DNA of 64,000 bases from a virus (lineage: Duplodnaviria; Heunggongvirae; Uroviricota; Caudoviricetes): IMG/VR virus record IMGVR_UViG_3300027807_000001, positions 19,285 through 83,284 of that record. The stretch is one strand, 5' to 3'. Shown here piece by piece: positions 8,669-62,029 of this stretch. Each line of letters opens with the position of its first letter. Position 1 is the first letter of the stretch. The translations under genes were made by a program, and so were the position numbers. The notes beneath the pieces are model-generated. The model searched no databases, had not been told where the DNA came from, and saw only the letters and a list, made by a program, of their open reading frames with translations.

Positions 8669-8669
8669 C

Positions 8670-19793: not shown

Positions 19794-19795
19794 GT

Positions 19796-21615: not shown

Positions 21616-21622
21616 CCACTTT

Positions 21623-25292: not shown

Positions 25293-26457
25293 TCTCTTAC
25301 TACAAAAGATATTGGCGAACCCAATGATGGCACCAGGTCTCAGCATTTATGTAGCAGGTATGCTCGCCTTCATAATGAAGGATGTTCCTGGTCAAATCTG
25401 GGAGTTTGTGTCGAAGCACTCTACGACAACTCTATCAATGACCGCCAATACGGACAGTTTCTTTGCTCTAGCAGAGTGGATAGAAAATTCCCCCTACGCG
25501 AAGAAGTTTCGCACTATCCGTGTTGGAGACAACGACAAGATATCCGTCGGGTTTGGAAGACACTTCTTCATCTTCAAAAAGAGGATGTGCTGGCTCTCAC
25601 GCAATCGTGTTCAGAATAAGAATTATGAATTAGAAGAGATTAGTCTCTCTTACTTTGGAAGAGATCAGCAAATCCTGAGAGACATTCTTAAAGAAGCAAT
25701 GGAAGCGCGTCTGCAGTCAACCAAGACGCGAATTTACACCCACCCGCATGGAGAGTGGACCCTTCACGCGGAGCAGGAGAGGAGAGCGCTATCTACCGTT
25801 CTTCTTTCTGACGAGAACAGAAAAGCTCTTCTTAACCACCTCAATGATTATGTCAATCAGAAAGACTGGTATCTTAAACACGGCATTCCCTATAGAACCG
25901 GGATCTGTTTATCGGGCCCTCCCGGCACTGGAAAGACTTCGCTAGTCAGAGCCATCTGCGCTGAGTATAAGTTAAAGCTGTGCACGCTAGACCTGTCGCA
26001 GGTGGGCAATGGATCCTTAATGGTACTGATGTCTCGGCTAGAACCCAAGAGCCTACTACTAGTAGAAGACATAGATACCATCTCCGTAACAGAGGACAGA
26101 GACAGAGTTCAGCCTCGCGGAGAGAAGCTCTCACTAGAGACGCTGACTCTGGGAGGCGTTCTCAATGCGCTCGATGGAGTCGTAGGATCTGATGGGCGTA
26201 TCTTAGTTGTCACCACCAATAAGCTAGCCAAGCTAGACCCTGCCCTATTGCGTCCCGGTCGCATCGATCTGGCTTTGGAACTCGGGTATTTAACACCCCC
26301 GCTGTTCGTAGAGGCGATGAAGAACTTCTTTCCTAACTTCATCGTGACTAATATCGACTGGCCTACAACTATGACGCCTGCTACACTGCAACAGATTATC
26401 CTGGGGCACAAGGATAATCCAAACAAGGTTTTAGAAGTTATTCAGCGAACAAAATAA
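25264..26457 (+). CDS. AAA+ ATPase, BCS1-like
   Basis: Walker A GPPGTGKTS, Walker B LLLVEDID, sensor and arginine finger region VVTTNKLAKLDPALLRPGRID; long N-terminal domain before the AAA core. Confidence 0.8.
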   Translation: MSPARYQMNSLLLQKILANPMMAPGLSIYVAGMLAFIMKDVPGQIWEFVSKHSTTTLSMTANTDSFFALAEWIENSPYAKKFRTIRVGDNDKISVGFGRHFFIFKKRMCWLSRNRVQNKNYELEEISLSYFGRDQQILRDILKEAMEARLQSTKTRIYTHPHGEWTLHAEQERRALSTVLLSDENRKALLNHLNDYVNQKDWYLKHGIPYRTGICLSGPPGTGKTSLVRAICAEYKLKLCTLDLSQVGNGSLMVLMSRLEPKSLLLVEDIDTISVTEDRDRVQPRGEKLSLETLTLGGVLNALDGVVGSDGRILVVTTNKLAKLDPALLRPGRIDLALELGYLTPPLFVEAMKNFFPNFIVTNIDWPTTMTPATLQQIILGHKDNPNKVLEVIQRTK

Positions 26458-26469: not shown

Positions 26470-26763
26470 ATGACCCCGACGATAGAAGCCCCTGAGGTAG
26501 GTACCATCAGTATTTCGGATTCCCGAACAGAGAATGCAATGAATTGGAATGTCGTACTCCACAATTGCGACTGCCATACATTCACAGATGTAGAAGATTC
26601 TCTTGTCAGAGTTATCCGCTGCGACCTAGAGAAGGCGAAAGAGTACGCGATGACTGTTCACGAGAAAGGAGTCTGCGTCGTATTTTCAGCACACAAGGAA
26701 AGGGCGGAAGTAAAATATCTAGGATTAAAAGAAGACGGTCTAACAGTTGAACTGACTAAATAG
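26470..26763 (+). CDS. clpS: ClpS-like adaptor protein
   Basis: WNVVLHNCDCHTFTDVEDSLVRV...AMTVHEKGVCVVFSAHKERAE matches the ClpS core fold pattern. Confidence 0.65.
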   Translation: MTPTIEAPEVGTISISDSRTENAMNWNVVLHNCDCHTFTDVEDSLVRVIRCDLEKAKEYAMTVHEKGVCVVFSAHKERAEVKYLGLKEDGLTVELTK

Positions 26764-32562: not shown

Positions 32563-32751
32563 ATGTCTACTAATTTAATTTGTCTTGTTAAAGGACATTA
32601 CCCGTGCGACATAGAAGGTTGCACATGGTGCTACAACAACGATGAGATTACTGAGTGCTACCACTGCAAACAGCCTATAGAGAGGGATCTCTCTTCCTAT
32701 GTCGGCGTTAATGGTCCTTCTCACCCATACAAATGGCGATTAATAAAATGA
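32563..32751 (+). CDS. Cys-rich subfamily B protein (LICLVKGHYPC)
   Basis: subfamily B motif; CYHC. Confidence 0.5.
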   Translation: MSTNLICLVKGHYPCDIEGCTWCYNNDEITECYHCKQPIERDLSSYVGVNGPSHPYKWRLIK

Positions 32752-32921
32752 ATGATCTCGCCTGCTTAGTCAATGGGCATTATCCATGTAAAAATCGGAA
32801 CTGTGTAATTCATAATGCAGTAGTAGTAGAGTTGTGCTTTCAGTGCGGTCGAACGATAGAAAAAGCATCTGAGACGCCCACATCAGGTATTTACGAATGG
32901 CGATCAAAAGGAAGCGCTTAG
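32733..32921 (+). CDS. Cys-rich subfamily B protein (LACLVNGHYPC)
   Basis: tandem paralog of the previous gene. Confidence 0.5.
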   Translation: MAINKMNDLACLVNGHYPCKNRNCVIHNAVVVELCFQCGRTIEKASETPTSGIYEWRSKGSA

Positions 32922-39846: not shown

Positions 39847-40087
39847 TAAACTCTGCTGTTTAGTGAATAGAGTCTACGGAAACTCTCTTCGCGGAAAGAA
39901 TTATTGTGTTCGTTGCGACAAGATATTCTGTTCATTCACCTGCGAAGAAGAGACGCCTTGTGATACTCCTCAGCACAGGCACTTCACCTTCATCTTATTG
40001 CCGGGAACACAGTGGACTCCTAGCACGCACCCAGACAAAGAAGGCACAAGACAAAGGCTTGATTTAAGCCGTAACTACGATAAATGA
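39836..40087 (+). CDS. LCC-family mini-protein (LCCLVNR)
   Basis: MVDNKLCCLVNRVYGNSLRGKNYCVRCDKIFC. Confidence 0.55.
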   Translation: MVDNKLCCLVNRVYGNSLRGKNYCVRCDKIFCSFTCEEETPCDTPQHRHFTFILLPGTQWTPSTHPDKEGTRQRLDLSRNYDK

Positions 40088-41223
40088 AAAATCTAAACTC
40101 GTTGTTCATTGAGCATGGGCTTTATGATAAGCACACGCTAGATCTGTATGCGGAAAGACATACGGTACGCTTGCGTATGTCTGAAAGGCTACCCCATCTC
40201 GGCATCCTTCACTACCGAGATGATGTTGTTTTCGGGAAAGGTCAATGGACTGACTTTACAAAATCGTGCCGCGGAGTAGTTGTAGATTTCAATCAAAAGA
40301 AAATCTTGGCGCAAGGGTACAATAAGTTCTTTAACCTGGGAGAAGCTGAAGCGCCTTCACTCAGGGAGCTAGAAGCGAAGGGCGAATTTGTCGTGACAGA
40401 GAAGTTAGATGGATCTATGATTCTTCTCTTTTGGGATGAGACGACAAAACAGTTTGTCGCTACAACCAAAGGCTCGATAGACTCCGAGCAGGGCCAACAT
40501 GCCACAACACTAATCCCTTCTTCTGTCCGCGATGTTAAACTCGTTCAATCGCATACTTTAATGTTCGAGCTCATTTCCCCCAAGTATCAAATTGTCGTCC
40601 CGTACGACAAGATTGGGTACGAAGAAGGACTCTACTTGATCGGAGTTCGCGAGTTAAAGTCGGAGAAGATCTTCTCTCCTAAAGAAGTTCTCGCCTTTGC
40701 GAAAGAGTATAATCTCAAGGCATACAAGACTTACCCCTTCGCAAGTCTCCAAGCTGTCGTAGAGGATGTCAAAGAGCTCCCATACACTCGCGAAGGATTC
40801 GTTGTTGTTTACAACGATGCGATGGTAAAGATCAAAGGTAAAGAGTATCTGCGTGTCCATAGGTTCATCTCTACCCTCAGCGATAAGAACTTGTTGGATG
40901 TAATGATTGCAGGTGAAGATAAGAATGTTGTCGAGAACATAGGATCAGTTCCTGAGGAGTACAGACAGGACGTACTCGATACGTTTGCTAACTTCAAAAG
41001 AAAGGCGCTGGACTTTCAGAAGCAGTGCTACTCTTACTTCGCAGACGTAGTAGGAAAGATTCCTGCTGATACACAGAAGATTGAGAATCAGAAGAGGAAA
41101 GCGTTCGCAGCACATGTACAGTCAATCCCTGAAGAGTACAGAGGCTTCTTATTTAAGATGTATGATCACAAAGAGCCGGAACTGACTCAGATTTATATGC
41201 TGTTCAAGAGAAGAGGGGTATGA
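40084..41223 (+). CDS. ATP-dependent RNA ligase (Rnl-like nucleotidyltransferase)
   Basis: motif I TEKLDGSM (KxDG lysine nucleotidyltransferase); size and neighbourhood (CCA enzyme, Pnkp, tRNAs) fit an RNA repair ligase. Confidence 0.65.
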   Translation: MKNLNSLFIEHGLYDKHTLDLYAERHTVRLRMSERLPHLGILHYRDDVVFGKGQWTDFTKSCRGVVVDFNQKKILAQGYNKFFNLGEAEAPSLRELEAKGEFVVTEKLDGSMILLFWDETTKQFVATTKGSIDSEQGQHATTLIPSSVRDVKLVQSHTLMFELISPKYQIVVPYDKIGYEEGLYLIGVRELKSEKIFSPKEVLAFAKEYNLKAYKTYPFASLQAVVEDVKELPYTREGFVVVYNDAMVKIKGKEYLRVHRFISTLSDKNLLDVMIAGEDKNVVENIGSVPEEYRQDVLDTFANFKRKALDFQKQCYSYFADVVGKIPADTQKIENQKRKAFAAHVQSIPEEYRGFLFKMYDHKEPELTQIYMLFKRRGV

Positions 41224-41495
41224 TAAACAGAATACTGTGTTGGTATGGACATCACATGTGGACTTATCAAATTCATGTTCCAAGTCGCTGTGTCGATGAA
41301 CGTTTCTGCAAGAGCTGTAGGAAGACAGAGAACGTTTTACGACATCGATGGAGCAAATGGATAGTAGAGTTCTGGGGCAGCGAGACCCGTCAAACAGATG
41401 GAACTATTACTACCCATAAGATCGCGGTACAGACACGAGTGTGCGTAGATTGTAGTTTAAGGGAGTCGAACGAATATCACGCAAGGAAAGTATAA
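41220..41495 (+). CDS. zinc-finger hypothetical (ILCWYGHH...CKSC...CVDC), subfamily B-like
   Basis: ATGA overlap. Confidence 0.5.
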   Translation: MINRILCWYGHHMWTYQIHVPSRCVDERFCKSCRKTENVLRHRWSKWIVEFWGSETRQTDGTITTHKIAVQTRVCVDCSLRESNEYHARKV

Positions 41496-41659
41496 TGAAC
41501 ACCGCTTGGGCTGCATGGTCCCTTATCTGCGTAGCACTTATGGCTAACGGAGCAAGGAACAGATACAATATCTACGGTTGGAAGGATAAATGGTTCGGTA
41601 TCTTTTTAGTAGGAACTGTTTATAACGCAGTGGGGTTCTGGTTATTCCTAACTCACTAA
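41495..41659 (+). CDS. small membrane protein (54 aa)
   Basis: TAATG overlaps on both sides; hydrophobic. Confidence 0.35.
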   Translation: MNTAWAAWSLICVALMANGARNRYNIYGWKDKWFGIFLVGTVYNAVGFWLFLTH

Positions 41660-42084
41660 TGAGCATGGATCTTGTCTTTTTCTTCAGTGCACTAGCACTT
41701 CCCAGCTATATGCTAGTCTGCTTAGCAGATGTAGTGTTAGCAACCAGCTTAGAGAAGAAGCTACATTACTACCCACTGATAGACTTTGATTGCTTCTGCG
41801 GAAAGCACTGGAGCAATCTGTCGTCTCCAATTCTATTTCCTAATAGACTATACGACCTATATAAAATACACAGGCACATTAGTAGATGTCTCCCATGGAT
41901 AATGGTCGCAGAATTCAACGGGCTAACCCCTTACTGGGGATCTAGCCTAGCAGAAGACTTATCAAAACCTTCGGTGCTGTCAAGCTTTATAACCAAAGAA
42001 TGGCTCTTGAAGAAGGCTAGATTCAGAAGTCAAAGAGTAAGGGCAGGAAGAGATCCTTTTGATGACAGTGATGGACGCAAATAG
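41659..42084 (+). CDS. hypothetical protein with N-terminal transmembrane segment
   Basis: 141 aa; its stop abuts the tRNA-Leu 5' end. Confidence 0.5.
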   Translation: MSMDLVFFFSALALPSYMLVCLADVVLATSLEKKLHYYPLIDFDCFCGKHWSNLSSPILFPNRLYDLYKIHRHISRCLPWIMVAEFNGLTPYWGSSLAEDLSKPSVLSSFITKEWLLKKARFRSQRVRAGRDPFDDSDGRK

Positions 42085-42166
42085 GTCTAGTGGTGAAATG
42101 GCAAACACTGGAGACTTAAAATCTCCCGCTCGCAAGGGCTTGTGGGTTCGAGTCCCACCTAGACCA
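42084..42166 (+). tRNA. tRNA-Leu (anticodon TAA) with long variable arm
   Basis: acceptor GGTCTAG/CTAGACC, anticodon arm GGAGA-CTTAAAA-TCTCC, 15-nt variable arm, T-arm GTGGG-TTCGAGT-CCCAC, CCA encoded. Confidence 0.75.
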
Positions 42167-42173
42167 CCAATTT

Positions 42174-42398
42174 ATGTCTAAATTACAATTCTGGATTGTT
42201 AAATACGATCGTGGAGAAAAGTCTCACGCGACCGGATGGAATGCAGGGCAAGCCTTCGGGTGCTCATCTATTTGTAGAATGGGCCCGTATAACTGCCCAG
42301 AAGTAAGTCGTGCACCTTTTGACGGAAAGAACTTCCCCTCTTGTGTCCCCTGTGCGAAGTTAACTCAAAAGATGCTCCCAATGATAGCGATCAAATAA
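42174..42398 (+). CDS. hypothetical Cys-containing protein
   Basis: 74 aa. Confidence 0.45.
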   Translation: MSKLQFWIVKYDRGEKSHATGWNAGQAFGCSSICRMGPYNCPEVSRAPFDGKNFPSCVPCAKLTQKMLPMIAIK

Positions 42399-42400
42399 TT

Positions 42401-42694
42401 ATGGCAGACCTCTGTTGCTACGTATCTCCTATAATCAATACGGAGTACCCTTACTCTTATTGCTACTGTGTTCATTGTCATGATCTTATCTGCAATGAAT
42501 GCTCCGGAAAATTTCTTTACATTTCTGATGATGATGGAAGTGGATACTTTCACCACCAGAAATGTAAAGAAATCTGCGATGAGAATCCCTCCATTTATAA
42601 CAGTCAGTGGCATGAAAAGTACCCACGAACAGAGGATTGTAATGATCATGCCCTCTGCTTAAAAAGAAAGATTGTCACCGGGAAGAAGCCTTGA
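42401..42694 (+). CDS. LCC-family protein (LCCYVSP)
   Basis: MADLCCYVSPIINTEYPYSYCYCVHCHDLICNEC. Confidence 0.55.
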   Translation: MADLCCYVSPIINTEYPYSYCYCVHCHDLICNECSGKFLYISDDDGSGYFHHQKCKEICDENPSIYNSQWHEKYPRTEDCNDHALCLKRKIVTGKKP

Positions 42695-42903
42695 ACAGCA
42701 ACCTCTGTTGCCTCGCTAAAGCAGCGTATAGGTGCTGCGGATGCCATATAACTCTCTGCGAAGACCATTCCACAGAATACACAGCACCTATATGCGCTAC
42801 ACCACATAGGGTTACCATAGCCGCAGGGTCCCGTGTATGCCACGCGCATCCTCTAGATGATTTTGTTTTTGAAGAGGGGGCTTGGAGATTTTGGCATGAA
42901 TGA
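42691..42903 (+). CDS. LCC-family mini-protein (LCCLAKA)
   Basis: ATGA overlap; MNSNLCCLAKAAYRCCGCHITLC. Confidence 0.55.
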   Translation: MNSNLCCLAKAAYRCCGCHITLCEDHSTEYTAPICATPHRVTIAAGSRVCHAHPLDDFVFEEGAWRFWHE

Positions 42904-43087
42904 GCAGCTATGCTGTCAAATACATCCGGCGTTCAGATGCTGTGAATGCGCTCTATCTGTATGTACAGAACATTTTTCCACTAGCCAGGAAAGAGAATGC
43001 AGACTAATCCCCGGGAATTCTCATTGCTGCCTTCATGGTCTAGAGACCACCTCCATACTCTTGTTCCAGAGATCATATGAAGAATAA
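42896..43087 (+). CDS. LCC-family mini-protein (LCCQIHP)
   Basis: MNEQLCCQIHPAFRCCECALSVC. Confidence 0.55.
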   Translation: MNEQLCCQIHPAFRCCECALSVCTEHFSTSQERECRLIPGNSHCCLHGLETTSILLFQRSYEE

Positions 43088-43220
43088 GGCCCTTTGTTGC
43101 ATATTAAATCCTGTTGTGCAGGAAATGTGTATAGACCGTTATTCGGAAATGGCAGCTAAGAAAGTCACAGAGGGGCTCGATGCATTTCTAAAGAAGCTTA
43201 AGATACCCCTACCTCCGTAG
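43077..43220 (+). CDS. LCC-family mini-protein (LCCILNP), 47 aa
   Basis: MKNKALCCILNPVVQEMC; below track cutoff. Confidence 0.45.
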   Translation: MKNKALCCILNPVVQEMCIDRYSEMAAKKVTEGLDAFLKKLKIPLPP

Positions 43221-43226
43221 TCCTCA

Positions 43227-43262
43227 CCTCACAAAAAGACTAGAGGACTCAGAGTATAATAT
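43227..43262 (+). promoter_or_regulatory. promoter-like element (copy 7)
   Basis: identical 37-mer to copy 6. Confidence 0.5.
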
Positions 43263-43339
43263 ATTAACAGAAGGCGCCTCTTACAGGAGTAAACAAAAAC
43301 CGTTTGGAGAACACAATAGAATTTAAACGAGAAGGCGCA

Positions 43340-43540
43340 ATGCAGTCTCTGCCCCTATGTTGTAGCGTTAATCCCGTTAGATGTGATACCCGTAAAGGTA
43401 TGGCGTATTGTCCAGGTAACATAGGCATCTGTGCAGAACATCAAAAGGTTCTTTTTCAAGAGAAGGGCAAATGGATCACCCTCTGTAGAGCTTGTAGCGA
43501 CGCAATCTATGAAGCCGATAAGAAAAGACGCCATGGTTAA
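43340..43540 (+). CDS. LCC-family mini-protein (LCCSVNP)
   Basis: SD GAGAAGGCGCA; MQSLPLCCSVNPVRCD. Confidence 0.55.
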   Translation: MQSLPLCCSVNPVRCDTRKGMAYCPGNIGICAEHQKVLFQEKGKWITLCRACSDAIYEADKKRRHG

Positions 43541-43739
43541 GAACAATCTGTGTTGTCTAGTTAATCCATTCGTAAGGTGCAGGGAATGTTCAGCTACCAG
43601 GTGTGAGCAACATGGCGCTGCACCTTACGATTGTGGGACGGGCGTTTGGCCTGACACGCCCATAAAGGCGCACCTCTTCGAGTCGCTAATAGGATGGGGT
43701 CCTCTTATCTGGACAAAAGAATCTGGGTGGACATTTTGA
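43533..43739 (+). CDS. LCC-family mini-protein (LCCLVNP)
   Basis: MVKNNLCCLVNPFVRCRECSATRC. Confidence 0.55.
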   Translation: MVKNNLCCLVNPFVRCRECSATRCEQHGAAPYDCGTGVWPDTPIKAHLFESLIGWGPLIWTKESGWTF

Positions 43740-43918
43740 AGAAACTATGCTGTGCTGTTAATCCCTATATAATGTGCGCTACCTGTGGGTGGACATGTTG
43801 TAAAGATTGTGGTAATGAGATTTGGGAGATGCCAGGAGGACTTCTCTATTCTACTCACGCAAAAGACTCTGAGGAGTGTTATTATTGGGATCCAATAACA
43901 GTCGCCTCTGCTGCATAA
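43727..43918 (+). CDS. LCC-family mini-protein (LCCAVNP), GTG or TTG start
   Basis: KKLCCAVNPYIMCATCGWTCCKDC. Confidence 0.5.
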   Translation: MDILKKLCCAVNPYIMCATCGWTCCKDCGNEIWEMPGGLLYSTHAKDSEECYYWDPITVASAA

Positions 43919-44091
43919 TCAACCCTGTAGTTAGATGTACATCCTGTAGTACAACTAGATGTTCAGACCATGGAGAAGATCCTATCTATTTTGTGTACCT
44001 CCTTATACCTATATGGGTCACCACTTTATCACTACCTCTCCAAAAGCTACGTTTCGCCAAGCCCACTGGACAAAACAGCATGGGTGGGTAA
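43876..44091 (+). CDS. LCC-family mini-protein (LCCIINP), non-ATG start
   Basis: SRLCCIINPVVRCTSCSTTRC. Confidence 0.45.
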   Translation: MLLLGSNNSRLCCIINPVVRCTSCSTTRCSDHGEDPIYFVYLLIPIWVTTLSLPLQKLRFAKPTGQNSMGG

Positions 44092-44095
44092 TATA

Positions 44096-44287
44096 ATGTC
44101 TACGTCTTTCTGGAACTGGCTAAAGTTACTCCCTAGGGGATGTAGTAATGGGCATAAGTGGGTAATACCCATTAAGCATGTAAGAGGCAATGGCGCCATA
44201 GTATACGACTACTCCGAGGACGTTTTGTATAATGGCCTTCGCGTATGCGCTAGATGTAATGTACGAAATGACCAGAAGAAATCATGA
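44096..44287 (+). CDS. hypothetical protein (GCSNGH...CARC)
   Basis: ATG after previous stop; alternative to the longer track ORF 43970-44287. Confidence 0.35.
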   Translation: MSTSFWNWLKLLPRGCSNGHKWVIPIKHVRGNGAIVYDYSEDVLYNGLRVCARCNVRNDQKKS

Positions 44288-44355
44288 TATCAATTAACTA
44301 TTTACATCAATGTCATGATCTGTGAACAGATACTAAGCATTAACTAGAAAAGTCT

Positions 44356-44589
44356 ATGGCATTACCCCAGATAAGACCATCACCGCTATGTTGCCTTATT
44401 AGGCCTGCATTCATATGTAGAATATGCCACGCTAGAATCTGCGACGACTGTAATGACCAAGATTTAGCGGCTGCCGGCCAAGCTGGTGAAACTCCAAACA
44501 ATTTTGGGCATGTAAGCAGGGAGTGCTTGTCAAGAACTCACGAGCAGCGAATGAACGACTGGATAGTTGTTGAACACGAAGGAGAATGA
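44356..44589 (+). CDS. LCC-family mini-protein (LCCLIRP)
   Basis: SPLCCLIRPAFICRICHARICDDC. Confidence 0.55.
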   Translation: MALPQIRPSPLCCLIRPAFICRICHARICDDCNDQDLAAAGQAGETPNNFGHVSRECLSRTHEQRMNDWIVVEHEGE

Positions 44590-44596
44590 TCTGTCT

Positions 44597-44821
44597 ATGC
44601 TGCAGCGACATACCATGCAATCTTCTCTATGTTGTTTAATTAATCCAGAGCGCTACTGCCTCCCCTGTGGGAAGAGATATTGCAAAGAGTGTCTCCGAGT
44701 ACTTATTCACACCACACCCAGTGATCAACTTTGTGAGGCAGGGTTTATCATTTGTAGTTGTGGATCGGCTGAAAAGAAGAGATGGAAAGAAGGGGCACCT
44801 GCCCCGAGAGTATTTCCTTGA
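44597..44821 (+). CDS. LCC-family mini-protein (LCCLINP)
   Basis: SD GAAGGAGAATG upstream; QSSLCCLINPERYCLPCGKRYC. Confidence 0.55.
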   Translation: MLQRHTMQSSLCCLINPERYCLPCGKRYCKECLRVLIHTTPSDQLCEAGFIICSCGSAEKKRWKEGAPAPRVFP

Positions 44822-45027
44822 ATAATTTAGCGTGTCTTATTAACGGGCACGAATGGCACGGAGAGTTCGACGCGAACGACCTTTCCCTACAAGCCTCTTT
44901 GGCTACGGGGTTCAAGGTGCTGTATGATAGCAAGGCTATCTGTTATTGGTGTAAAGAAAGAATTTTCTGGTCGTATAAAAATCCTAGTAGGCCTCGCTGG
45001 CAAACGTCAAAGGAAATAAATGGCTAA
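44818..45027 (+). CDS. Cys-rich subfamily B protein (LACLINGHEWHG), TTG start
   Basis: TTGA overlap. Confidence 0.45.
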   Translation: MNNLACLINGHEWHGEFDANDLSLQASLATGFKVLYDSKAICYWCKERIFWSYKNPSRPRWQTSKEING

Positions 45028-45901
45028 GCTTACCGTTTTAGTAGGACCGCCTGGCAGTGGGAAGAGCACCTACGCAAAGACTACTCAAGCGACATATATC
45101 AACCAAGATTCTCAAGGAAAGAATCATCTTAACTTGTTCAACGAGGCGCTTTCTCGGAAGGAAGATATAATTGTCGATAGGATGGGCTTTGACAAGGGGC
45201 AACGCGCCCGCTACATCGATCCAGCCAAAGCAGCTGGCTACGAAGTTAACATCCGTACCTTTGTCGTTCCTCGTAAGGTTTGTTTCGAGAGAGTGATGGC
45301 GAGAGTAGGACATGAGACCATCAAAGATGAGGTCGCAGCCAGATCAGCTATCAATCTCTTCTTCGCCAAGTACGATAAGCCTACGGATGCGGAAGGCAAG
45401 CTTGAGTTCGTTCAGTATGGTAGCCAGGATCTGGGCGGAGTTGTTCGCACCAAGCCTAAGGCTATCATTTGCGATCTCGATGGCACGATGTGCAACATTG
45501 ATCATCGGTTGCATTACGTGAAAAAGAATGTCGAGGGAGTTAAGCCTAACTGGTATATGTTCTTCAAAGGTATTCCTCGAGATACTCTCAATGAGTGGTG
45601 CGCTGATCTCGTTAGACGTTACAGCGGCGACCACCAGATCGTTTATTGTTCTGGGCGCGACGAAACTACGCGAGAGGTTACTGAGAAGTGGCTGAAGGAA
45701 CAGGGCGTATGGTTCGGTCATCTCTTTATGCGAAGTGCCGGCGACCACCGTCCGGATAATATCGTTAAGGAGATCTTACTAGACTTCGATATCCTTACTC
45801 AGTTTGATCCGGTACTCATGATCGATGATCGTCAACAAGTGACAGACATGTGGCGACGGCGTGGATTTATTTGTTTGCAGTGCGCGAAAGGCGATTTCTA
45901 A
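45020..45901 (+). CDS. polynucleotide 5'-kinase/3'-phosphatase (T4 Pnk-like)
   Basis: N-terminal P-loop GPPGSGKST kinase domain; C-terminal HAD motif CDLDGTM plus downstream MIDD; two-domain order as in T4 PseT. Confidence 0.8.
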   Translation: MAKLTVLVGPPGSGKSTYAKTTQATYINQDSQGKNHLNLFNEALSRKEDIIVDRMGFDKGQRARYIDPAKAAGYEVNIRTFVVPRKVCFERVMARVGHETIKDEVAARSAINLFFAKYDKPTDAEGKLEFVQYGSQDLGGVVRTKPKAIICDLDGTMCNIDHRLHYVKKNVEGVKPNWYMFFKGIPRDTLNEWCADLVRRYSGDHQIVYCSGRDETTREVTEKWLKEQGVWFGHLFMRSAGDHRPDNIVKEILLDFDILTQFDPVLMIDDRQQVTDMWRRRGFICLQCAKGDF

Positions 45902-49414: not shown

Positions 49415-50467
49415 TTGAGACCACTCGAAGTTGAAGAAGTCCTCAAATCGATTATCAGCAAGGGAGTTAAGTGTCCTGTCGTTGTGAAGGGAGACGCCGG
49501 AATCGGAAAGAGCCAGGTCATCCAGAAGGTTGGTCGGGACTTGGGCATGCACGTGATTGATTTGCGTCTTGCCCAGATGGAGCCGGGAGATTTGATTGGT
49601 CTTCCCCGGACCGACCCGGAATCCCACAAGACGGTGTGGTACGCTCCGGAGTGGTGGCCTTCGAAGAGCGATAAGGGGACTATCGTATTCTTCGACGAGC
49701 TCAATCGCGCGCCTGTCGATGTGCGACAGGCGGTTTTCCAGGTGCTGACGGAGTATAAGATGCACACGCACGTCCTCCCTGAGAACACCTTCCTCGTCGC
49801 GGCTATCAACCCTGATGAGGGCGGCAAGATGAATTACCAGGTCGAGCAGTTCGACCCCGCCATGGTAAATCGCATGTGCTTCATCTCCATGGAACCTGAT
49901 GGGCAGCAGTGGATCAACTGGGCCACCGCTGCGGGCGTGCATGAGATGGTGATTAAGTTTATCGCCGTCAATACCGCGATGTTGTACGCCGGCAGCGAGA
50001 CGGGCCCTTTCCCGTCGCCTCGCTCGTGGGTCCGCTTGTCGGATCTGATGAATGCGAATGCGATTCCGGCGTCAGCCCAATCGGAGGTTATCTCCGGCCT
50101 GATCGGTGAGAAGCCGGCGATCTCGTTCATTCGCTTCTTGGATAAGTCTTACAAGAAGCCGGTGAGCGGCAAGGAAGTCCTGGAATCGTTCGCGAAGTTC
50201 AAGGACAAGATCAAGGCGCAGAAGAACGACGAGAACTTCGTTACGATCTCGGAGCTCGTCGGTCTCCTGGGCGACGGAGCGAAGCTGAAGAAGGATCAGC
50301 TGACCAACGTCACCGACTTCGCCTTGGCGTTGAAGCAAGAGGAGAAGATGGCCTTGCTGAAGAAGCTGCCGAATTCTCTTCTGTCGAAGCTCGGTCAGAC
50401 CTCGCAGGACCTGTGCAATACGATCGCCTCTATCGCGGCTGAAATGGACAAGGAAAGAGGGCGGTAA
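49415..50467 (+). CDS. MoxR-type AAA+ ATPase
   Basis: TTG start with strong SD AAAGGAGGAG; Walker A GDAGIGKSQ, Walker B IVFFDELNRAP, MoxR-type sensor region. Confidence 0.85.
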   Translation: MRPLEVEEVLKSIISKGVKCPVVVKGDAGIGKSQVIQKVGRDLGMHVIDLRLAQMEPGDLIGLPRTDPESHKTVWYAPEWWPSKSDKGTIVFFDELNRAPVDVRQAVFQVLTEYKMHTHVLPENTFLVAAINPDEGGKMNYQVEQFDPAMVNRMCFISMEPDGQQWINWATAAGVHEMVIKFIAVNTAMLYAGSETGPFPSPRSWVRLSDLMNANAIPASAQSEVISGLIGEKPAISFIRFLDKSYKKPVSGKEVLESFAKFKDKIKAQKNDENFVTISELVGLLGDGAKLKKDQLTNVTDFALALKQEEKMALLKKLPNSLLSKLGQTSQDLCNTIASIAAEMDKERGR

Positions 50468-51040: not shown

Positions 51041-51082
51041 GAGTTAGCCACTCGCACGCCAGGTGCGGGTGCACAATTCATG
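51041..51082 (+). promoter_or_regulatory. bipartite leader element variant (GTTAGCCACTCGCACG-N-GGGTGCACAATTCATG)
   Basis: 3' flank identical to copies at 19778 and 50588; abuts ATG 51080. Confidence 0.4.
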
Positions 51083-51322
51083 ACGAATCAGAATAAAGCA
51101 AGAGGGGATGGAACAGATCTATGTTGTCTAGTTAACCCTTATAGACGGCATCGAAATTGTTCTTATGCTTTTTGCATAGCTCATTACTGGAACGAATCCC
51201 GCGCACGAGCAGGACTAGGGCCACTGCAAGACGTAGCAAATACTCTTGACGGCAAATGTATTCGATGTGGTAAGGATGCAAGCACTGAAGCTGAATGGGA
51301 GTACGTTGTTGAAGAAAGCTAG
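51080..51322 (+). CDS. LCC-family protein (LCCLVNP)
   Basis: MTNQNKARGDGTDLCCLVNPYRRHRNCSYAFC; close paralog of 52435-52686. Confidence 0.55.
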   Translation: MTNQNKARGDGTDLCCLVNPYRRHRNCSYAFCIAHYWNESRARAGLGPLQDVANTLDGKCIRCGKDASTEAEWEYVVEES

Positions 51323-51512
51323 GCTGTGCTGTTTAATAAACACCCACACAGCGTGTTCTGTTTGCGAAAAGAAGTGGTGTGCACCTCATTGGGTGCAGGA
51401 AGGGGCTAGTCATTATTTTTTCAAGACGGCGGGAAACCTCGAATACAGTTGCAACGGCTTATCTTTAATAAGAAGTGAACCTTGCGGAATCTACCTCAAA
51501 GTCTCTACTTGA
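51276..51512 (+). CDS. LCC-family mini-protein (LCCLINT), start uncertain
   Basis: KARLCCLINTHTACSVCEKKWC. Confidence 0.5.
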   Translation: MQALKLNGSTLLKKARLCCLINTHTACSVCEKKWCAPHWVQEGASHYFFKTAGNLEYSCNGLSLIRSEPCGIYLKVST

Positions 51513-51564
51513 GAAGCAAACTGAGATGCGGTTATAGTGATTCGAACAATCTTGGAGATAAATA

Positions 51565-51903
51565 ATGAAACCTGCCACTTTACTTTCTAGAGAAGATATT
51601 GTATTACTACTAGAGCGCGCGCGTAGCCGGCGAATGTTCAGCGCAGAGGACCTCAGAGAATTCGCTTCAAATCTGCCGGATGACAAAGCATTTGCGCTGT
51701 CGCGACTACTCCCGAAAGATATTCAAGAGAAACTTCTCTCTCATAGAGACCAGACCTTTGCAGACAAGGTATTAAACTTTTGGAGTTCAATTTCAAAGGA
51801 AGGAGCCTTAGTAGAAGTAACTAAGGCTAAGGTTGCCGATGATCAGTTTTTAGTAACTCATGCAATCCCGTTGCTTACACTTATTGGGGTTGAAGGTTAC
51901 TAA
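51565..51903 (+). CDS. hypothetical protein (112 aa)
   Basis: ATG ORF, not Cys-rich. Confidence 0.5.
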   Translation: MKPATLLSREDIVLLLERARSRRMFSAEDLREFASNLPDDKAFALSRLLPKDIQEKLLSHRDQTFADKVLNFWSSISKEGALVEVTKAKVADDQFLVTHAIPLLTLIGVEGY

Positions 51904-52081
51904 ATAGTAGGTGTTTATAGAGATGTTTATGCCACGCACTTGTAGTGAGTTGTAGCTCGTGAGCCCCAATAAAGGGGGTGCGTCTGGTTAGATTATTGAC
52001 GTACTCACCGAACTGCTAAAACAAGATCGTAATAGCGGTAATGTTCGGGAGATAAAAATCCGAATCCTGAGGATAGATTTT

Positions 52082-52285
52082 ATGCAGACAGATCAACAGT
52101 TGTGTTGCATTATTAATCCAAGGTTCACCTGCGATAGATGCAAACAAAAGAGTTGTGAGGACCATTTCTTCGCCTGGCGCAATATCCATAAGATACCTTC
52201 GTACAAAGAGTCGTTACACAACAACGCCCATTGGTATTGCGAAAGTGCACGAGGATATATCGGAAGATATGGTAGACCAGTCTAA
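52082..52285 (+). CDS. LCC-family mini-protein (LCCIINP)
   Basis: MQTDQQLCCIINPRFTCDRCKQKSC. Confidence 0.55.
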   Translation: MQTDQQLCCIINPRFTCDRCKQKSCEDHFFAWRNIHKIPSYKESLHNNAHWYCESARGYIGRYGRPV

Positions 52286-52454
52286 GCGCTTGTGCTGCAT
52301 CGTTAATGAGATCGTCAAATGCGAAGACTGCGGCTATGGTATTTGTAAAGGTCACTTCTTCAAGAAGAGGGCTAGCAGCAGAACAAGATGTCTAAAGTGT
52401 TTCCGCAAGCAGATCATGCGGCACAGGCAAGGGAATGAACAACCTAAAATCTAA
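52269..52454 (+). CDS. LCC-family mini-protein (LCCIVNE)
   Basis: MVDQSKRLCCIVNEIVKCEDCGYGIC. Confidence 0.55.
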   Translation: MVDQSKRLCCIVNEIVKCEDCGYGICKGHFFKKRASSRTRCLKCFRKQIMRHRQGNEQPKI

Positions 52455-52686
52455 AGGAGACGGTACAGATTTATGTTGTCTAATAGCGCCTATTCGGAAG
52501 TGTTTAAACTGCGGTCTTACGCTATGTAATGACCACTGGTGGAATTCTGCTAGGGATTTGTTAGGGCTGTCTCCTCTGCCGACAACCGGAGGGGAGGATC
52601 CCCACGCTGTATGCCCTAGATGTTTTTATGCCAAAAAAGCTACATCTAAAGAGTTAGAGAGCTTACGCACCTGGGAAATTGCATGA
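52435..52686 (+). CDS. LCC-family protein (LCCLIAP)
   Basis: KGDGTDLCCLIAPIRKCLNCGLTLC; paralog of 51080. Confidence 0.55.
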   Translation: MNNLKSKGDGTDLCCLIAPIRKCLNCGLTLCNDHWWNSARDLLGLSPLPTTGGEDPHAVCPRCFYAKKATSKELESLRTWEIA

Positions 52687-52913
52687 AGTATTTTACTAGA
52701 TGGGGATTTGAGCCAGGAAACGCCTCCACTGGATTCGAATTTGGTAATCGAGAATTATACTCAACTGATTGGGATCGACAAGAGAGATGGCGTCTAGTAG
52801 GGAATATCCTTACAGGATACATAGCTATCGGCCGCTTTAGAACAGCTCTTAAATTTTACCACCCCGGTTCCTGGCGATTCTATATGATTTTGGTTCATCC
52901 AACTCGCGGATAA
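52683..52913 (+). CDS. hypothetical protein (not Cys-rich)
   Basis: ATGA overlap; 76 aa. Confidence 0.45.
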   Translation: MKYFTRWGFEPGNASTGFEFGNRELYSTDWDRQERWRLVGNILTGYIAIGRFRTALKFYHPGSWRFYMILVHPTRG

Positions 52914-52929
52914 TTACGAGGGTTTCATA

Positions 52930-53151
52930 ATGAAACTTTGCTGTATCGTTAATCCCTACACCATATGCATTTGTAACATGCAGTTTTGCTCACAATGCCT
53001 CGGAGATACTTCTAGAGATTCCTCTTTAGGAGGAGGGCACATTGTGCAAGTGAACAGTGCATGGGATGGTCGAGGACGATGTACAGTTACTGGGAAGATA
53101 GTGATCTGCTCACCTAAGCAGAAGAATACCGACCCGTGGCGATTAATATAG
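52930..53151 (+). CDS. LCC-family mini-protein (LCCIVNP)
   Basis: MKLCCIVNPYTICICNMQFCSQC. Confidence 0.55.
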   Translation: MKLCCIVNPYTICICNMQFCSQCLGDTSRDSSLGGGHIVQVNSAWDGRGRCTVTGKIVICSPKQKNTDPWRLI

Positions 53152-53160
53152 AGAGGGCAG

Positions 53161-53358
53161 ATGGAGATTAAATGGTTTAAGAAGTACAGACCCCTCTGCT
53201 GCATCGTTAACCCAGTAGCATCTGAAGATACGCGTTCATACTACGATGGATACCAGACTTATGTGAAGAAAGTTTACTGCTGCGAAGCTGTAAACAGATG
53301 TGCTGATCATCATGCACCAGGATGTTGGAGAAGAATTAAGTGGCACCCGGTTGTTTAG
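53161..53358 (+). CDS. LCC-family mini-protein (LCCIVNP)
   Basis: YRPLCCIVNPVASEDTRSYYDGY. Confidence 0.55.
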   Translation: MEIKWFKKYRPLCCIVNPVASEDTRSYYDGYQTYVKKVYCCEAVNRCADHHAPGCWRRIKWHPVV

Positions 53359-53371
53359 TTTGTCTTATTAA

Positions 53372-53517
53372 TCCAACACCATCGCTGCCTAGCAAATGCT
53401 ATAGCTGTCTTGTAGAAGGAAAGTGCGCAGAGCATCATGCCGATAATTGTATAAGAAAAGTTATTTGGCGACTACAACAAAGTTTAGAAGAGTTATCGAA
53501 ACCATCCGAGGATTAAA
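53372..53517 (+). CDS. Cys-rich variant (LVCLINP...CYSC), GTG start
   Basis: shifted-Cys variant, short. Confidence 0.35.
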
Positions 53518-54785
53518 TGGACAAAATACAAAAAGCGCAGATAGCATTACTTACTTCTAATGGTATCTTCTACGCTGCCCTCATGCAACAGATGAATCGC
53601 ATTGAAGGGAAAGATGTCCTCCCTAAGGATGCTCTCGCTGCTGTTCTCGTCCAGAACGGTCGTATCAATCTTTATACGAACTGCGAACTCTACGACAAGT
53701 TTAATCTTGATCAGATGTGTCGAATCTTGGAGCATGAGATGCTCCACGTGATCTTAGAGCATGGTAGCCGTTGCCCGAGCGGCGCAGGTTCTCTGTGGAA
53801 TATCGCATCAGATCTTGCCGTTAATTCATTAATCCCCGGCATGGATTTAGGGCTTCTTCCTGGTAAAGATCAGTTCAAAGATTTCCCCCTTGCCAAGTCT
53901 GCCGAATTTTACTACGGTCTGTTAAAGGATAAGCAGGGCAAAGGCGACTTATCTATTGACAAAGATGGCGATGTAAGTATGAAGGGTAAGGGCGGAAAGA
54001 TGGAGAAGGTAAAGACGGGCAAGTGCCCCTCTACTGAAAAGAGCGATTCTAAGTCCTCCGACGCGGAAAAGCTTGCCAAAGAAGTAGTTAAGCAAGCGGT
54101 TGCAGAAGCGATGGCAGAATCGTCTAGAACAGCCGGCGGCGCTCCTGCTGGACTTGAATCTATCATTGATGATCTTCTGAAGAAGAGCACCGTTAATTGG
54201 AAAGCAGTCCTTCGCCAGTTCGTCGGCTCTGCAGTCAAGTGTGGATCCAAATCTACCTGGAAAAGACAGTCCCGTCGCTTTGGAGATACGCAGAAGGGCA
54301 AGATGCCCGACCGAATGTTAGAGGTGGCAGTCGCTATCGATACCTCGGGGTCTATCACAGATGAAGATCTTGCCGAGTTTGTTGGTGAGATGAAGGGTAT
54401 CTTGAAGTCATACAAGTCAAAGATTCACGTCGTTGAGTGTGGCACATCCGTCGACAGGGCCTACGATCTTAAGCCGCATACCAAGATCAATTCAAAGTTC
54501 TTCGGTCGCGGCGGCGGAGACTTACGCCCCCCGTATGAATACTTCAAGGAAAAGAGGAAGAAGCCCAATGTATTAGTGTATTTTACGGACTGCTATGAAC
54601 AAGCTCCCGACAAAGAAACTATCAAGACTTTGTGGGTACGACCGAGTCAGGTTGACGGTACTAAGCCGCCTGAGATGCCCTTTGGCAAAGTTCTGCAGAT
54701 CCCTCGCCGGGGAGATTCTAGATCAGGCTACTGCCCTATTTGTAATCAGCCGGGGTGTAATTGTAACACGGCGGCGCGTCGCTAA
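53517..54785 (+). CDS. vWA-domain protein with N-terminal HExxH putative metallopeptidase domain (MoxR partner type), paralog 1
   Basis: HEMLHVILEH near the N-terminus; MIDAS motif VAIDTSGSI in the C-terminal vWA domain; 422 aa. Confidence 0.75.
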   Translation: MDKIQKAQIALLTSNGIFYAALMQQMNRIEGKDVLPKDALAAVLVQNGRINLYTNCELYDKFNLDQMCRILEHEMLHVILEHGSRCPSGAGSLWNIASDLAVNSLIPGMDLGLLPGKDQFKDFPLAKSAEFYYGLLKDKQGKGDLSIDKDGDVSMKGKGGKMEKVKTGKCPSTEKSDSKSSDAEKLAKEVVKQAVAEAMAESSRTAGGAPAGLESIIDDLLKKSTVNWKAVLRQFVGSAVKCGSKSTWKRQSRRFGDTQKGKMPDRMLEVAVAIDTSGSITDEDLAEFVGEMKGILKSYKSKIHVVECGTSVDRAYDLKPHTKINSKFFGRGGGDLRPPYEYFKEKRKKPNVLVYFTDCYEQAPDKETIKTLWVRPSQVDGTKPPEMPFGKVLQIPRRGDSRSGYCPICNQPGCNCNTAARR

Positions 54786-57804: not shown

Positions 57805-59016
57805 ATGTCTATGGACAAGATGCAGAAGGCGCTGATCCATCTGCTGGGCGGCGACGGCATCTTTTATGCATCTCTGTTGATGCAGATGAGAACAATTGAC
57901 GGGAAGGATCTCCCCAAGGATGCTCTCGCCGCGGTCTCCGTCCAAAACGGACGGATTCAGTTACACATTGATCCCCCTCGCTTAGAGCCATTTTCCGTTG
58001 ATCAGGTCGCCCGGATCTTAGAGCATGAGTGCTTACATCTTGTGCTAGAACACATCGGCCGCATGGAAAATCGGCACCCTTACCTTTGGAATATCGCTAC
58101 GGACCTTGCAGTGAATTCGTTGATCAACGGCATGGATATGGGATTGCTCTGCGGCAAGGAGCCTTTTACAGATATCCCTGAAAAGAAGTCGGCCGACTTC
58201 TACTACGCGATCCTTCGCGACAAATATGATATGAAGGAGGTTACCTTCAACGCCGACGGCACCGTTACCGTTAAAGATGGTAAGACCGGCAAATCGGTGA
58301 CGTTGAAGCCTACAGGTGATCATAAAGATTGGGAGAAGTCTTCGAGTTCCGCAGCTGAAGCTTTGGCGAAAGAGGTAATTAAGCAGGCGGTGGCAGAAGC
58401 CGCGGCTTCTGCCAAAGCTGCAGGCAAGTGGCCTGCGGGTGTGAAAGAGCTTGTTGACGACCTGCTTGGTGCAGAGAAGATTAACTGGAAGAGGTTGTTG
58501 CGCCAGTATATCGGTAATAAGGTTAAGTCTGGCCAAAAGAATTCATGGAAGCGAGAGAGTAAGCGATTCGGGGAGATGCAGAAAGGTAAGCTGAAGAATC
58601 GCATCGTTAAGATAGGTGTCGCTATCGATACCTCTGGGTCTGTCAGCTCTGCCGAACTTCAGGAATTCATGAACGAGATCAACGCTATCATGGGCTCTTA
58701 TAAGACAGATATTACGATCTTAGAGTGTGACGCTGCTGTGCAGAAAGTTTACACCATGAAAAGGCATATGAAGGTTGATCCTAAGTTCGCCGGCAGGGGA
58801 GGAACTTCTTTTATTCCTCCTTATGAATACTTCAAGGGCGTAGGCAAAGGTAAGCGCCCGGAGCTACTTGTGTATTTTACGGATGCTGAAGGAACTGCTC
58901 CTGCTACTGAAGAAATCAAGACCGTGTGGGTGATTACCTCTGCTTCTAGCATTGAAACCATGCCTTGGGGCAGAGTACTGAAAATTCCGCGAGATGAAGG
59001 AAAGAGGAAGCGCTAG
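57805..59016 (+). CDS. vWA-domain protein with N-terminal HExxH putative metallopeptidase domain, paralog 2
   Basis: HECLHLVLEH; VAIDTSGSV MIDAS motif; collinear with 53517-54785. Confidence 0.75.
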   Translation: MSMDKMQKALIHLLGGDGIFYASLLMQMRTIDGKDLPKDALAAVSVQNGRIQLHIDPPRLEPFSVDQVARILEHECLHLVLEHIGRMENRHPYLWNIATDLAVNSLINGMDMGLLCGKEPFTDIPEKKSADFYYAILRDKYDMKEVTFNADGTVTVKDGKTGKSVTLKPTGDHKDWEKSSSSAAEALAKEVIKQAVAEAAASAKAAGKWPAGVKELVDDLLGAEKINWKRLLRQYIGNKVKSGQKNSWKRESKRFGEMQKGKLKNRIVKIGVAIDTSGSVSSAELQEFMNEINAIMGSYKTDITILECDAAVQKVYTMKRHMKVDPKFAGRGGTSFIPPYEYFKGVGKGKRPELLVYFTDAEGTAPATEEIKTVWVITSASSIETMPWGRVLKIPRDEGKRKR

Positions 59017-61748: not shown

Positions 61749-61874
61749 ATGAAGGATAAGGCACTCCCTTTCTTAATAGGGTTCGCTCTTGGCCATAGGG
61801 GGAGCTCTGTGCTAGTGCACGGAGTATACCTGACTATTATAGCTCTTCTGCTTGTTGCAAGACATTGGCATTAA
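61749..61874 (+). CDS. small membrane peptide (41 aa)
   Basis: ATG 5 nt after previous stop. Confidence 0.3.
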   Translation: MKDKALPFLIGFALGHRGSSVLVHGVYLTIIALLLVARHWH

Positions 61875-62029
61875 CTTCCAACAAGCTGTGTTGTATCGTT
61901 AATCCTTATGTAGAGTGCCCTGGGTGCAGCCATGGAATATGTGAACAGTGTCTTCTCGATGGCACAGGTGTGCGCTCATTGGCGTGTGCCGTATGCAATA
62001 ATGCTCTCCGCTGGAGCAAACTTAGATGA
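61865..62029 (+). CDS. LCC-family mini-protein (LCCIVNP), non-ATG (TTG) start
   Basis: LTSNKLCCIVNPYVECPGCSHGICEQC; frame open from 61799 with no ATG. Confidence 0.4.
   Translation: MALTSNKLCCIVNPYVECPGCSHGICEQCLLDGTGVRSLACAVCNNALRWSKLR

Follow-up and report, generated by a model that had tools for sequence, protein, structure and literature searches.

Small LCC-motif genes in a large uncultured phage: a tandem array with turnover between related lineages and a predicted zinc-finger product

The locus described here lies in a 64,000-nt stretch of viral DNA (positions 19,285 to 83,284 of IMG/VR record IMGVR_UViG_3300027807_000001; hereafter the window), which is identical to part of the 210,340-bp contig Ga0116230_10000007 from JGI metagenome 3300009510. 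At 42401-45027, on the plus strand, twelve consecutive small genes run up to the gene for polynucleotide kinase/phosphatase (PNKP), and ten of them belong to what we call the LCC family (Table 1). The sequence-only reading had assigned all twelve open reading frames (ORFs) to this family; the ten starts that it listed are indeed those of real plus-strand ORFs with the LCC motif, but 44096-44287 and 44782-45027 have to be excluded. As it had proposed, the array is the densest LCC cluster of the window, with 10 starts in 2.42 kb versus 8 for the next densest cluster (51071-53491).

The LCC motif reads M-x(1-10)-L-C-C-x-[IV]-N-P-x3-C-x2-C-x4-C-x2-[C/H] and is followed by a later His/Cys pair, which gives about eight ligands. 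We define the family by the presence of this motif at the N terminus of a protein of 45-160 aa. Nine of the ten listed ORFs show the full ligand pattern in this position, some of them with loop-length variants, and the remaining one, 43077-43220, is degenerate and retains the first half of the motif only. Most copies have the start Met 2-5 residues ahead of LCC (MNKLCC, MNNLCC, MNSKLCC). In some members (48610, 53340, P0018, L013, L018, L028) L-C-C is replaced by C-L-x-C-L-[IV]-N-P, and because of these variants we regard the first ligand pair as either a C-x2-C knuckle or a vicinal CC. Within the array, G2 carries K-A in place of N-P and scores weakly with the family profile hidden Markov model (HMM; E=0.011), and its spacing, CC-x7-C-x2-C-x4-C-x2-H, is canonical; in G8 the putative zinc-finger half is intact and the C-terminal tail is hydrophobic, without the fourth ligand pair.

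The packing of the genes is as tight as first described: neighbors overlap by 4, 8, 11, 8, 4 and 34 nt or are separated by 4-7 nt, the exceptions being the gap that holds the promoter-like element and one gap of 68 nt. Overlaps of 4-11 nt between start and stop codons suggest translational coupling. Non-ATG starts are needed in three genes, again in agreement with the sequence-only reading, and we favor TTG in all three: 42691 itself, 43736 rather than the listed GTG at 43727, and 43885 rather than the listed GTG at 43876. An RNA hairpin was noticed inside the coding region of G1 at 42511-42573 (24-nt arms, 92% complementary, minimum free energy -28.7 kcal/mol, z-score -5.5 versus shuffles), and shorter hairpins occur at 42724-42795 and 43567-43633.

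The degenerate gene 43077-43220 does end at the seventh copy of a promoter-like element, as had been noted: its stop codon (43218-43220) abuts and overlaps the element. Other plus-strand copies lie at 8207, 8851, 13685, 17907, 28323, 34308, 49304 and 57695, with a weaker one at 26687, and three more were found in the related contig L116 (6949, 13266 and 18702), one of them inside the LCC array of that phage. The element is thus conserved in a relative whose proteins share only 50-66% identity with those encoded here. Its upstream box lies at about -40 to -29 from a good -10 box, which is the position of the T4 MotA box and not that of a -35 hexamer. Copy 7 probably splits the array into two transcription units.

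Table 1. Features of the array and of its surroundings (window numbering; sizes in residues)
Feature	Position	Strand	Size and start	Remarks
tmRNA	623-992			tag DKSLLAVANEIVNNAFARELAVA
tRNA-Met	19795-19870			
tRNA-Val	21544-21618			
tRNA-Arg(UCU)	24271-24343			
BCS1-like AAA protein	25264-26457			
ClpS homolog	26470-26763			
T4-type RNA ligase 1 (Rnl1)	40084-41223	+		conserved anchor, upstream of the array
tRNA-Leu(UAA)	42084-42169	+		directly 5' of the array
G1, LCC	42401-42694	+	97, ATG	8-residue insertion in first loop; C-terminal YFHH..C..C motif
G2, LCC	42691-42903	+	70, TTG	start in TTGA overlap with G1 stop
G3, LCC	42896-43087	+	63, ATG	8-nt overlap with G2
G4, LCC, degenerate	43077-43220	+	47, ATG	11-nt overlap; LCCILNP kept, C-x2-C pairs lost
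Promoter-like copy 7	43219-43268	+		CCTCACAAAAAG-N16-17-GTA(A/T)AATAT; putative promoter
G5, LCC	43340-43540	+	66, ATG	GAGAAGG 5 nt upstream; variant loop spacing; first gene past promoter-like element
G6, LCC	43533-43739	+	68, ATG	8-nt overlap
G7, LCC	43736-43918	+	60, TTG	start in TTGA overlap with G6 stop; alternatives GTG 43727, ATG 43694
G8, LCC	43885-44091	+	68, TTG	start 8 nt after GAGGAG; alternative GTG 43876
Second family, not LCC	44096-44287	+	63	C-S-N-G-H-K-W ... C-x2-C; interleaved in array
G10, LCC	44356-44589	+	77, ATG	nearest relatives window 30327 and L104:6838
G11, LCC	44597-44821	+	74, ATG	GAAGGAG upstream; alternative ATG 44615
Second family, not LCC	44782-45027	+	81	LACLINGHEW...CYWC; overlap of 40 nt with G11 and of 8 nt with PNKP start
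PNKP	45020-45901	+		conserved anchor, downstream of the array
MoxR-type AAA ATPase	49415-50467			
DUF2201 (vWA-like), paralog	53517-54785			
DUF2201 (vWA-like), paralog	57805-59016			
Pfam Acb5-matching gene	~64247-64579			L113 13025-13357; just past window end
COOH-NH2 ligase + GATase pair	~66030-68454			L113 14808-17232; past window end
ATP-dependent DNA ligase	~70221-71324			L113 18999-20102; past window end

The array is the largest concentration of a family that is spread over the whole window. A family HMM, built from 30 motif instances of the window itself and searched on stop-to-stop segments, identified 48 members between 1626 and 62591, all on the plus strand, and three further LCC genes (69091, 71341 and 71522) follow within 7.7 kb past the window end, so that at least 51 copies lie in 72 kb. 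Since the HMM was derived from the window, we used a degenerate DNA pattern and codon usage as controls. The pattern (CC-x-[IV]-N-x4-C-x2-C-x4-C, in translation) has 24 matches on the plus strand, none on the minus strand and none in 100 shuffles, and every synonymous codon occurs at the conserved positions (Leu, Cys, Ile/Val and Asn), with TGT and TGC at about 50:50 at each Cys. Such synonymous variation among the copies indicates that the constraint acts on the protein. The 48 members have a median length of 68 aa, with 7.2 Cys and about 2.5 His on average, and their net charge ranges from -4 to +11. Sequence similarity between array paralogs is confined to the motif, where the best local BLASTP match reaches 55% identity. 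Several subfamilies span different phages: G1 groups with the window members 21154 and 21623 and with L028:9461, and is closer to the last than to any paralog in the window; 34916 pairs with L034:3211 and 60126 with L018:1929. Much of the LCC duplication must therefore be old. Two unusual architectures were seen among the related sequences, a fusion in which an FGE-sulfatase-like domain is joined to a degenerate LCC N terminus (L014 2473-3195) and tandem two-finger LCC proteins (several among L014 7557-7979, P0005, P0010 and P0012).

Comparison with related phages, which the sequence-only reading had proposed, was carried out with PNKP as the anchor for finding the corresponding locus, and it revealed the variation in copy number that had been anticipated. 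The window has 10 LCC genes in 3.8 kb between Rnl1 and PNKP. Lineage B (L034/L102, Ga0265322; PNKP 73% identical to that of the window) has four in 2.8 kb upstream of PNKP, lineage C (L103-105, three samples that are 99.9-100% mutually identical; PNKP 68%) has seven in 2.7 kb, and lineage D (L107; PNKP 78%) has at least seven in 1.8 kb, reaching the contig end. Lineage E (L116, GenBank JAFMOA010003343.1; PNKP 50%) has 17 between Rnl1 and PNKP and 33 in 20.3 kb; it is a viral operational taxonomic unit (vOTU) from the SPRUCE Minnesota peat virome study (PMC8626947). An identical, invariant array without paralog turnover is thus not what these four lineages show. The gene order of lineage E is the same as that of the window (Rnl1, array, PNKP, HNH, MoxR, DUF2201), whereas PNKP precedes Rnl1 in lineages B and C (L034 8778-14155 and L104 7963-13592, unlike window 40084-45901 and L116 4000-12232); this inverted order indicates a rearrangement between lineages. 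In the window as well as in lineages B, C and E, each of the two anchors has LCC genes as direct neighbors.

The array members have diverged further than the genes around them, with 30-48% identity between relatives and window against 57-66% for Rnl1 and 50-78% for PNKP. Lineage D contains four tandem paralogs that are each other's closest relatives (34-48% identity) and belong to the subfamily with a single copy, 44597-44821, in our array. Lineages B and C are otherwise collinear, and C has two extra LCC genes between the ortholog of the B gene at 8312-8794 and PNKP. Orthologous LCC pairs of B and C share 39-67% identity; the synonymous distance (dS) is saturated for most of them and the nonsynonymous distance (dN) is far lower, with a dN/dS of 0.27 for the only pair in which the ratio is measurable. 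Two of the three single-nucleotide polymorphisms in 3.6 kb among the lineage C samples hit LCC genes, and both are nonsynonymous (L104 7141 vs L103 832 and L104 7088 vs L103 779; one changes LCC to LFC), a count that is anecdotal. As judged from the gene content of these contigs, paralogs have been gained and lost between related phages.

The family has escaped the existing collections. Neither Pfam nor PHROGs has a model for it, tblastn of one LCC member found no relative in 50,697 GenBank phage records (phage G, discussed below, included), and when 185,579 genomes of bacterial and archaeal species were scanned for the DNA motif, 64 single matches came up, which is about chance level; the same scan gave one weak candidate sequence, identical on two contigs of metagenome-assembled genomes, with no clue to a host. 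By an exhaustive profile search of 1.84 billion cluster representatives we found 251 clusters at E <=1e-3, and we put the family at about 245 clusters of metagenome proteins. Six long matches were rejected as family members, being eukaryotic C2H2 or piccolo zinc-finger arrays of similar composition. Among the best 150 of the 251 clusters, 145 consist of proteins of 57-160 aa, all with an LCC or CLxC motif that is mostly N-terminal. Each of the ten clusters that we looked up derives from metagenomic assemblies (ENA, JGI, Logan and, in one case, NCBI, namely the SPRUCE vOTU) and is hypothetical or nameless. In IMG/VR the motif recurs on contigs 3300038416_000116 (20 members in 14.8 kb) and 3300033155_001115. 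A word-indexed search had returned four proteins only, as if the family were limited to this genome; this was an artefact of sensitivity and was overturned by the exhaustive HMM search. On the evidence of these searches the LCC family is virus-restricted and previously undescribed.

The order of the ligands, C-x2-C or CC, x7, C-x2-C, x4, C-x2-[C/H] and a distal H...C or C-x2-C, leads us to predict that the LCC domain is a B-box/RING-like cross-brace finger that would bind two zinc ions. The B-box consensus is C-x2-[C/H]-x7-12-C-x2-C-x4-C-x2-[C/H]-x3-6-H-x2-9-[C/H]. In most LCC members the second and third pairs and the x7 spacer agree with it exactly. As for the first pair, CC prevails and C-x2-C is the less frequent form (48610, 53340, P0018); the last two ligands are more widely spaced (H-x8-12-C). 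All sub-threshold Pfam matches are to cross-brace fingers: zf-AN1 in 4 of the 48 members, the ANCHR-like B-box in four (best E=0.06), zf-RING_4 in two (best 1.2e-5), zf-B_box in one (E=0.11, 13.2 bits versus a cut-off of 24.1), and further FYVE, RING and IBR. Compared with structures in PDB, the family profile matched best the B-box of TRIM2 (E=0.0067) and the RING of NOT4. The AlphaFold2 (AF2) model of 61865-62029 has a predicted local distance difference test score (pLDDT) of 76.6, about 89 over residues 11-30, and shows a beta-hairpin followed by a helix; nearly all of the 50 best Foldseek matches of the model in PDB are RING, U-box or B-box domains, with template modeling (TM) scores of 0.4-0.5 and each with E >=0.8. 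Because the agreement between the tools is weak, we call the domain B-box/RING-like and file it in neither family.

These observations can be combined in one explanation, in which the locus would be the largest cluster of a lineage-specific multigene family that evolves by tandem duplication, divergence and loss. Such birth-and-death evolution would account for the different numbers and versions of LCC genes at the same place in the relatives. Each protein, of 45-100 residues, would consist of a two-zinc cross-brace finger in the N-terminal 30-50 residues and a highly variable C-terminal part. The genes lie head-to-tail on the strand of the accessory genes (RNA ligase, PNKP, CCA-adding enzyme, tRNAs, ClpS, MoxR/DUF2201), and they are probably expressed as two polycistronic units, the first after tRNA-Leu and the second from the promoter-like element at 43219-43268. 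Each protein may be aimed at a different target of the host or of a rival. A role in conflict is suggested by the signature of turnover, by the protein-binding nature of the nearest finger classes, by the spread of charge and by the neighborhood, in which RNA repair genes, tRNAs, tmRNA, ClpS and MoxR/DUF2201 occur and an Acb5-family gene follows just past the window end. An evolutionary argument of this kind has been applied to other variable families of jumbo phages (Iyer et al. 2021, PMC7824862).

Several results weigh against this explanation. No LCC member reaches the Pfam gathering score of any zinc-finger family, neither fold search gave a significant match, and the confidence of the AF2 model is only moderate. 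About half of the members (23 of 48) are basic, with an isoelectric point (pI) above 8.5. The public JGI gene calls over the array include two of the ten LCC genes, the others being missing or wrong: an antisense ORF at 42365-42613 (minus strand) covers G1, G6 is extended to 43431-43739 (the JGI and Logan calls start it at GTG 43431 and give the 102-aa protein P0003), and a wrong-frame ORF at 44667-44825 covers G11. Many members have a weak Shine-Dalgarno signal or none, and three need TTG. Finally, decay may have set in for some copies, given that the array has one degenerate member and another without the fourth ligand pair. Taken as a whole, the view of the LCC genes as a birth-and-death family of small two-zinc protein-binding modules for host takeover or counter-defence is nevertheless the one that we favor, with slightly more belief than doubt. 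We have high confidence in the family and its motif, its coding nature, its expansion and turnover, and the lack of machinery for a cassette mechanism. That the products are protein-binding modules that serve in host takeover or counter-defence is a tentative proposal, to which we give rather less than an even chance.

The main rival holds that the LCC proteins bind nucleic acids, either as specific regulators of transcription or translation or as structural DNA-binding proteins. Nucleic acids are a frequent target of small zinc fingers in phages (Ogr/Delta, Mu Com), a few LCC members have a net charge of +9 to +11 in addition to the many with high pI, and this function has been proposed for the expanded Zn-ribbons of phage G (Iyer et al. 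2021, PMC7824862). The range of charge, however, extends down to -4 and argues against one shared nucleic-acid ligand, 6 of the 10 array members are acidic or neutral, conservation concerns the scaffold of metal ligands rather than a basic surface, profile and fold searches alike come closest to cross-brace fingers that bind proteins, and at least 50 regulators would be hard to justify in one 210-kb genome; we therefore consider nucleic-acid binding as the common function unlikely, though a serious competitor. The proteins could also be RING/B-box-like E3 enzymes or adaptors, each paralog feeding one substrate to a proteolytic or ubiquitin-like pathway of the host or of the phage (ClpS, MoxR-DUF2201). 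The structural neighbors of the predicted fold, almost exclusively RING/U-box E3 domains, would fit, as would the match of one member to zf-RING_4 at 1.2e-5, the combination of a conserved finger with a variable tail, which suits an adaptor, and the presence of ClpS, a BCS1-like AAA protein, MoxR and two DUF2201 proteins in the phage; but small cross-brace fingers are generic, the structural matches are non-significant, and no E1, E2 or ubiquitin-like gene is annotated in the 76 kb examined, which makes this idea improbable. We attach a similarly low probability to its most elaborate form, a TRIM-like repertoire inside bacteria, in which the tail would capture a host or defence protein and the finger would couple this target to a machine for proteolysis or conjugation, either that of the host or ClpS/MoxR-DUF2201. 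A strictly N-terminal conserved block is also what one would expect if the proteins were packaged in the virion and injected, with M-N-K-L-C-C-x-x-N-P as a packaging signal by analogy with the internal proteins of T4, and the block does occur without the rest of the finger, both in 43077-43220 and in the FGE-sulfatase-like fusion. The conserved region, however, comprises about 25 residues with metal-ligand spacing rather than a short leader, no motif resembling a protease site follows the block, and the genes are located among early/accessory genes, far from the structural ones, so that packaging would be a surprise to us.

Two further alternatives concern the genes rather than the function of their products. 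The sequence-only reading had described a "cassette-style diversification locus", and this stands in the sense of evolutionary diversification, that is of turnover across lineages, but not in the sense of a programmed mechanism, in which the phage would vary a single expressed product by exchanging, inverting or mutagenizing copies in the course of its life cycle. In favor of such a system one can cite the large number of homologous units in tandem, whose 5' block is conserved while their 3' parts vary, and the differences in copy number between related phages. Yet the eight window ORFs of at least 250 aa (BCS1-like AAA, Band_7, CCA-adding enzyme, Rnl1, PNKP, MoxR and two DUF2201) include no reverse transcriptase, invertase or recombinase, and we found in the array neither a pair of template and variable repeats, as a diversity-generating retroelement would have, nor inverted repeats flanking the units, nor long or near-identical DNA repeats, only a motif-coding stretch of 20-37 nt that recurs with 65-85% identity. 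The array paralogs are at most 55% identical, and over the motif only; all copies are complete ORFs and have starts of their own, with no asymmetry between silent and expressed copies, and over the array independent assemblies of the same phage, from different samples, show 100% identity. Assembly breaks at one point only, 43247, where the Logan contigs SRR5829575_87769 and SRR5829575_96848 end; this point falls inside promoter-like copy 7, and since 37 bases there are identical to the copy at 34308, the break is a repeat artefact and not strain variation. The idea of a programmed cassette is already largely refuted, and we consider it extremely improbable. The array might instead be decaying or selfish DNA, made up of relics of an old amplification, or encode precursors of modified peptides similar to ribosomally synthesized and post-translationally modified peptides (RiPPs). 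Consistent with this alternative are the failure of gene callers to report the LCC ORFs, the degenerate array member, the poor starts and ribosome-binding sites, and the LCC to LFC polymorphism of lineage C; against it, about 245 clusters and five phage lineages have retained the frames, the starts and all ligand positions, and dN is well below dS where it can be measured. As to peptide precursors, of which prochlorosin-type arrays are an example, no radical-SAM, LanM, YcaO or similar Pfam match was obtained for the called window genes, and the conserved part shows metal-ligand spacing, not the features of a leader. We accordingly give very little credence to relics and precursors alike.

The phage itself was also assembled from metagenome 3300009697 and in the Logan assemblies of SRR5829575 and SRR5829578; we take the JGI sets to be peat-moss-associated communities. 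In the window almost all genes are on the plus strand and the G+C content is about 46%. Megablast of the locus against the 50,697 GenBank phage records gave no match, and the best PNKP match among GenBank phages has 31% identity. Since the window sits in a 210,340-bp metagenome contig and has no close GenBank phage, its source is a large uncultured phage of 210 kb. MoxR, the DUF2201 proteins, the BCS1-like AAA protein and ClpS form a toolkit for protein remodeling and degradation that is dispersed among the LCC genes, and MoxR and DUF2201 are also encoded in L116. A second small Cys/His family (C-x-[IL]-N-G-H-x-W ... C-x2-C) comprises the two array genes that are not LCC and the genes at 13204-13458 and 32712-32921; sequences at 999-1337 and near 2460 on the minus strand are more loosely related. 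Variant forms of the family motif are [DN]-L-A-C-L-[IV]-N-G-H... and C-x-x-x-G-H-x-W ... C-x2-C, and its start, L-A-C-L-I-N, resembles the LCC block L-C-C-L-I-N. The second family has no match to the LCC HMM or to Pfam, and a suspected relationship to DUF1660 was not supported.

If our interpretation is true, the LCC family would exceed every paralog expansion so far noted in phage genomes (at least 51 copies versus about 35), and it would define an undescribed, virus-restricted zinc-finger family. Its abundance in peat viromes has probably been overlooked because most of it escapes the usual gene callers and domain libraries; in practical terms, annotation is systematically too sparse where genes of 50-90 codons overlap in dense arrays and start with TTG. 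With its rapid turnover beside genes for RNA repair and anti-defence, the family is a good candidate for new factors in phage-host conflict, and it may serve as a natural system for the birth-and-death evolution of viral micro-proteins.

Among the known systems, two offer what we regard as functional analogies only. The internal-protein (IP) locus of T4-like phages is reportedly hypervariable. It has been linked to counter-defence, and the T4 protein IPI* blocks a type IV restriction enzyme. As in our array, neighboring small genes share a conserved N-terminal block, are otherwise diverse, and vary in content between close relatives, but the block of the IP genes is a capsid-targeting leader of about 10 residues that is cut by the prohead protease, there is no metal-binding domain, and the copies are a handful. 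The NleG proteins, said to be prophage-encoded U-box effectors of enterohaemorrhagic E. coli, likewise form a phage-borne multi-paralog family that combines a conserved RING/U-box-like module with a variable part for target recognition; they differ in their length of about 200 aa, in the C-terminal position of the module and its lack of zinc, and in being secreted into eukaryotic cells to use the host ubiquitination. At the level of the domain, the B-box, RING, ZZ and AN1 fingers (PF00643, PF22586, PF14570, PF01428) share with LCC the C-x2-C-x7-C-x2-C-x4-C-x2-[C/H] spacing with His/Cys thereafter. Unlike these eukaryotic cross-brace fingers, the LCC domain mostly has a vicinal CC as its first pair and is stand-alone, N-terminal and phage-encoded, with no E2/ubiquitin context visible. 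The nearest parallel is Bacillus phage G, whose expansion of Zn-ribbons to about 35 copies was called unprecedented (Iyer et al. 2021, PMC7824862). Both phages have dozens of tandem or dispersed paralogs, in clusters of the accessory region, that encode zinc-binding (in our case putatively so) proteins of up to about 100 aa with no assigned function. The phage G proteins (gp32, gp34, gp35, gp37) have a four-Cys ribbon, C-P-x-C ... C-P-x2-C, and a helical KENDRYL tail, whereas the LCC proteins have about eight ligands and are shorter. Homology between the two was rejected, as the LCC HMM reached no better than E=0.25 when phage G 3,000-52,000 was searched in six-frame translation. The LCC expansion, with at least 51 copies in the 72 kb of our phage and 33 in 20 kb of L116 against about 35 in phage G, is the same kind of phenomenon as the phage G expansion, produced by an unrelated and more expanded family.

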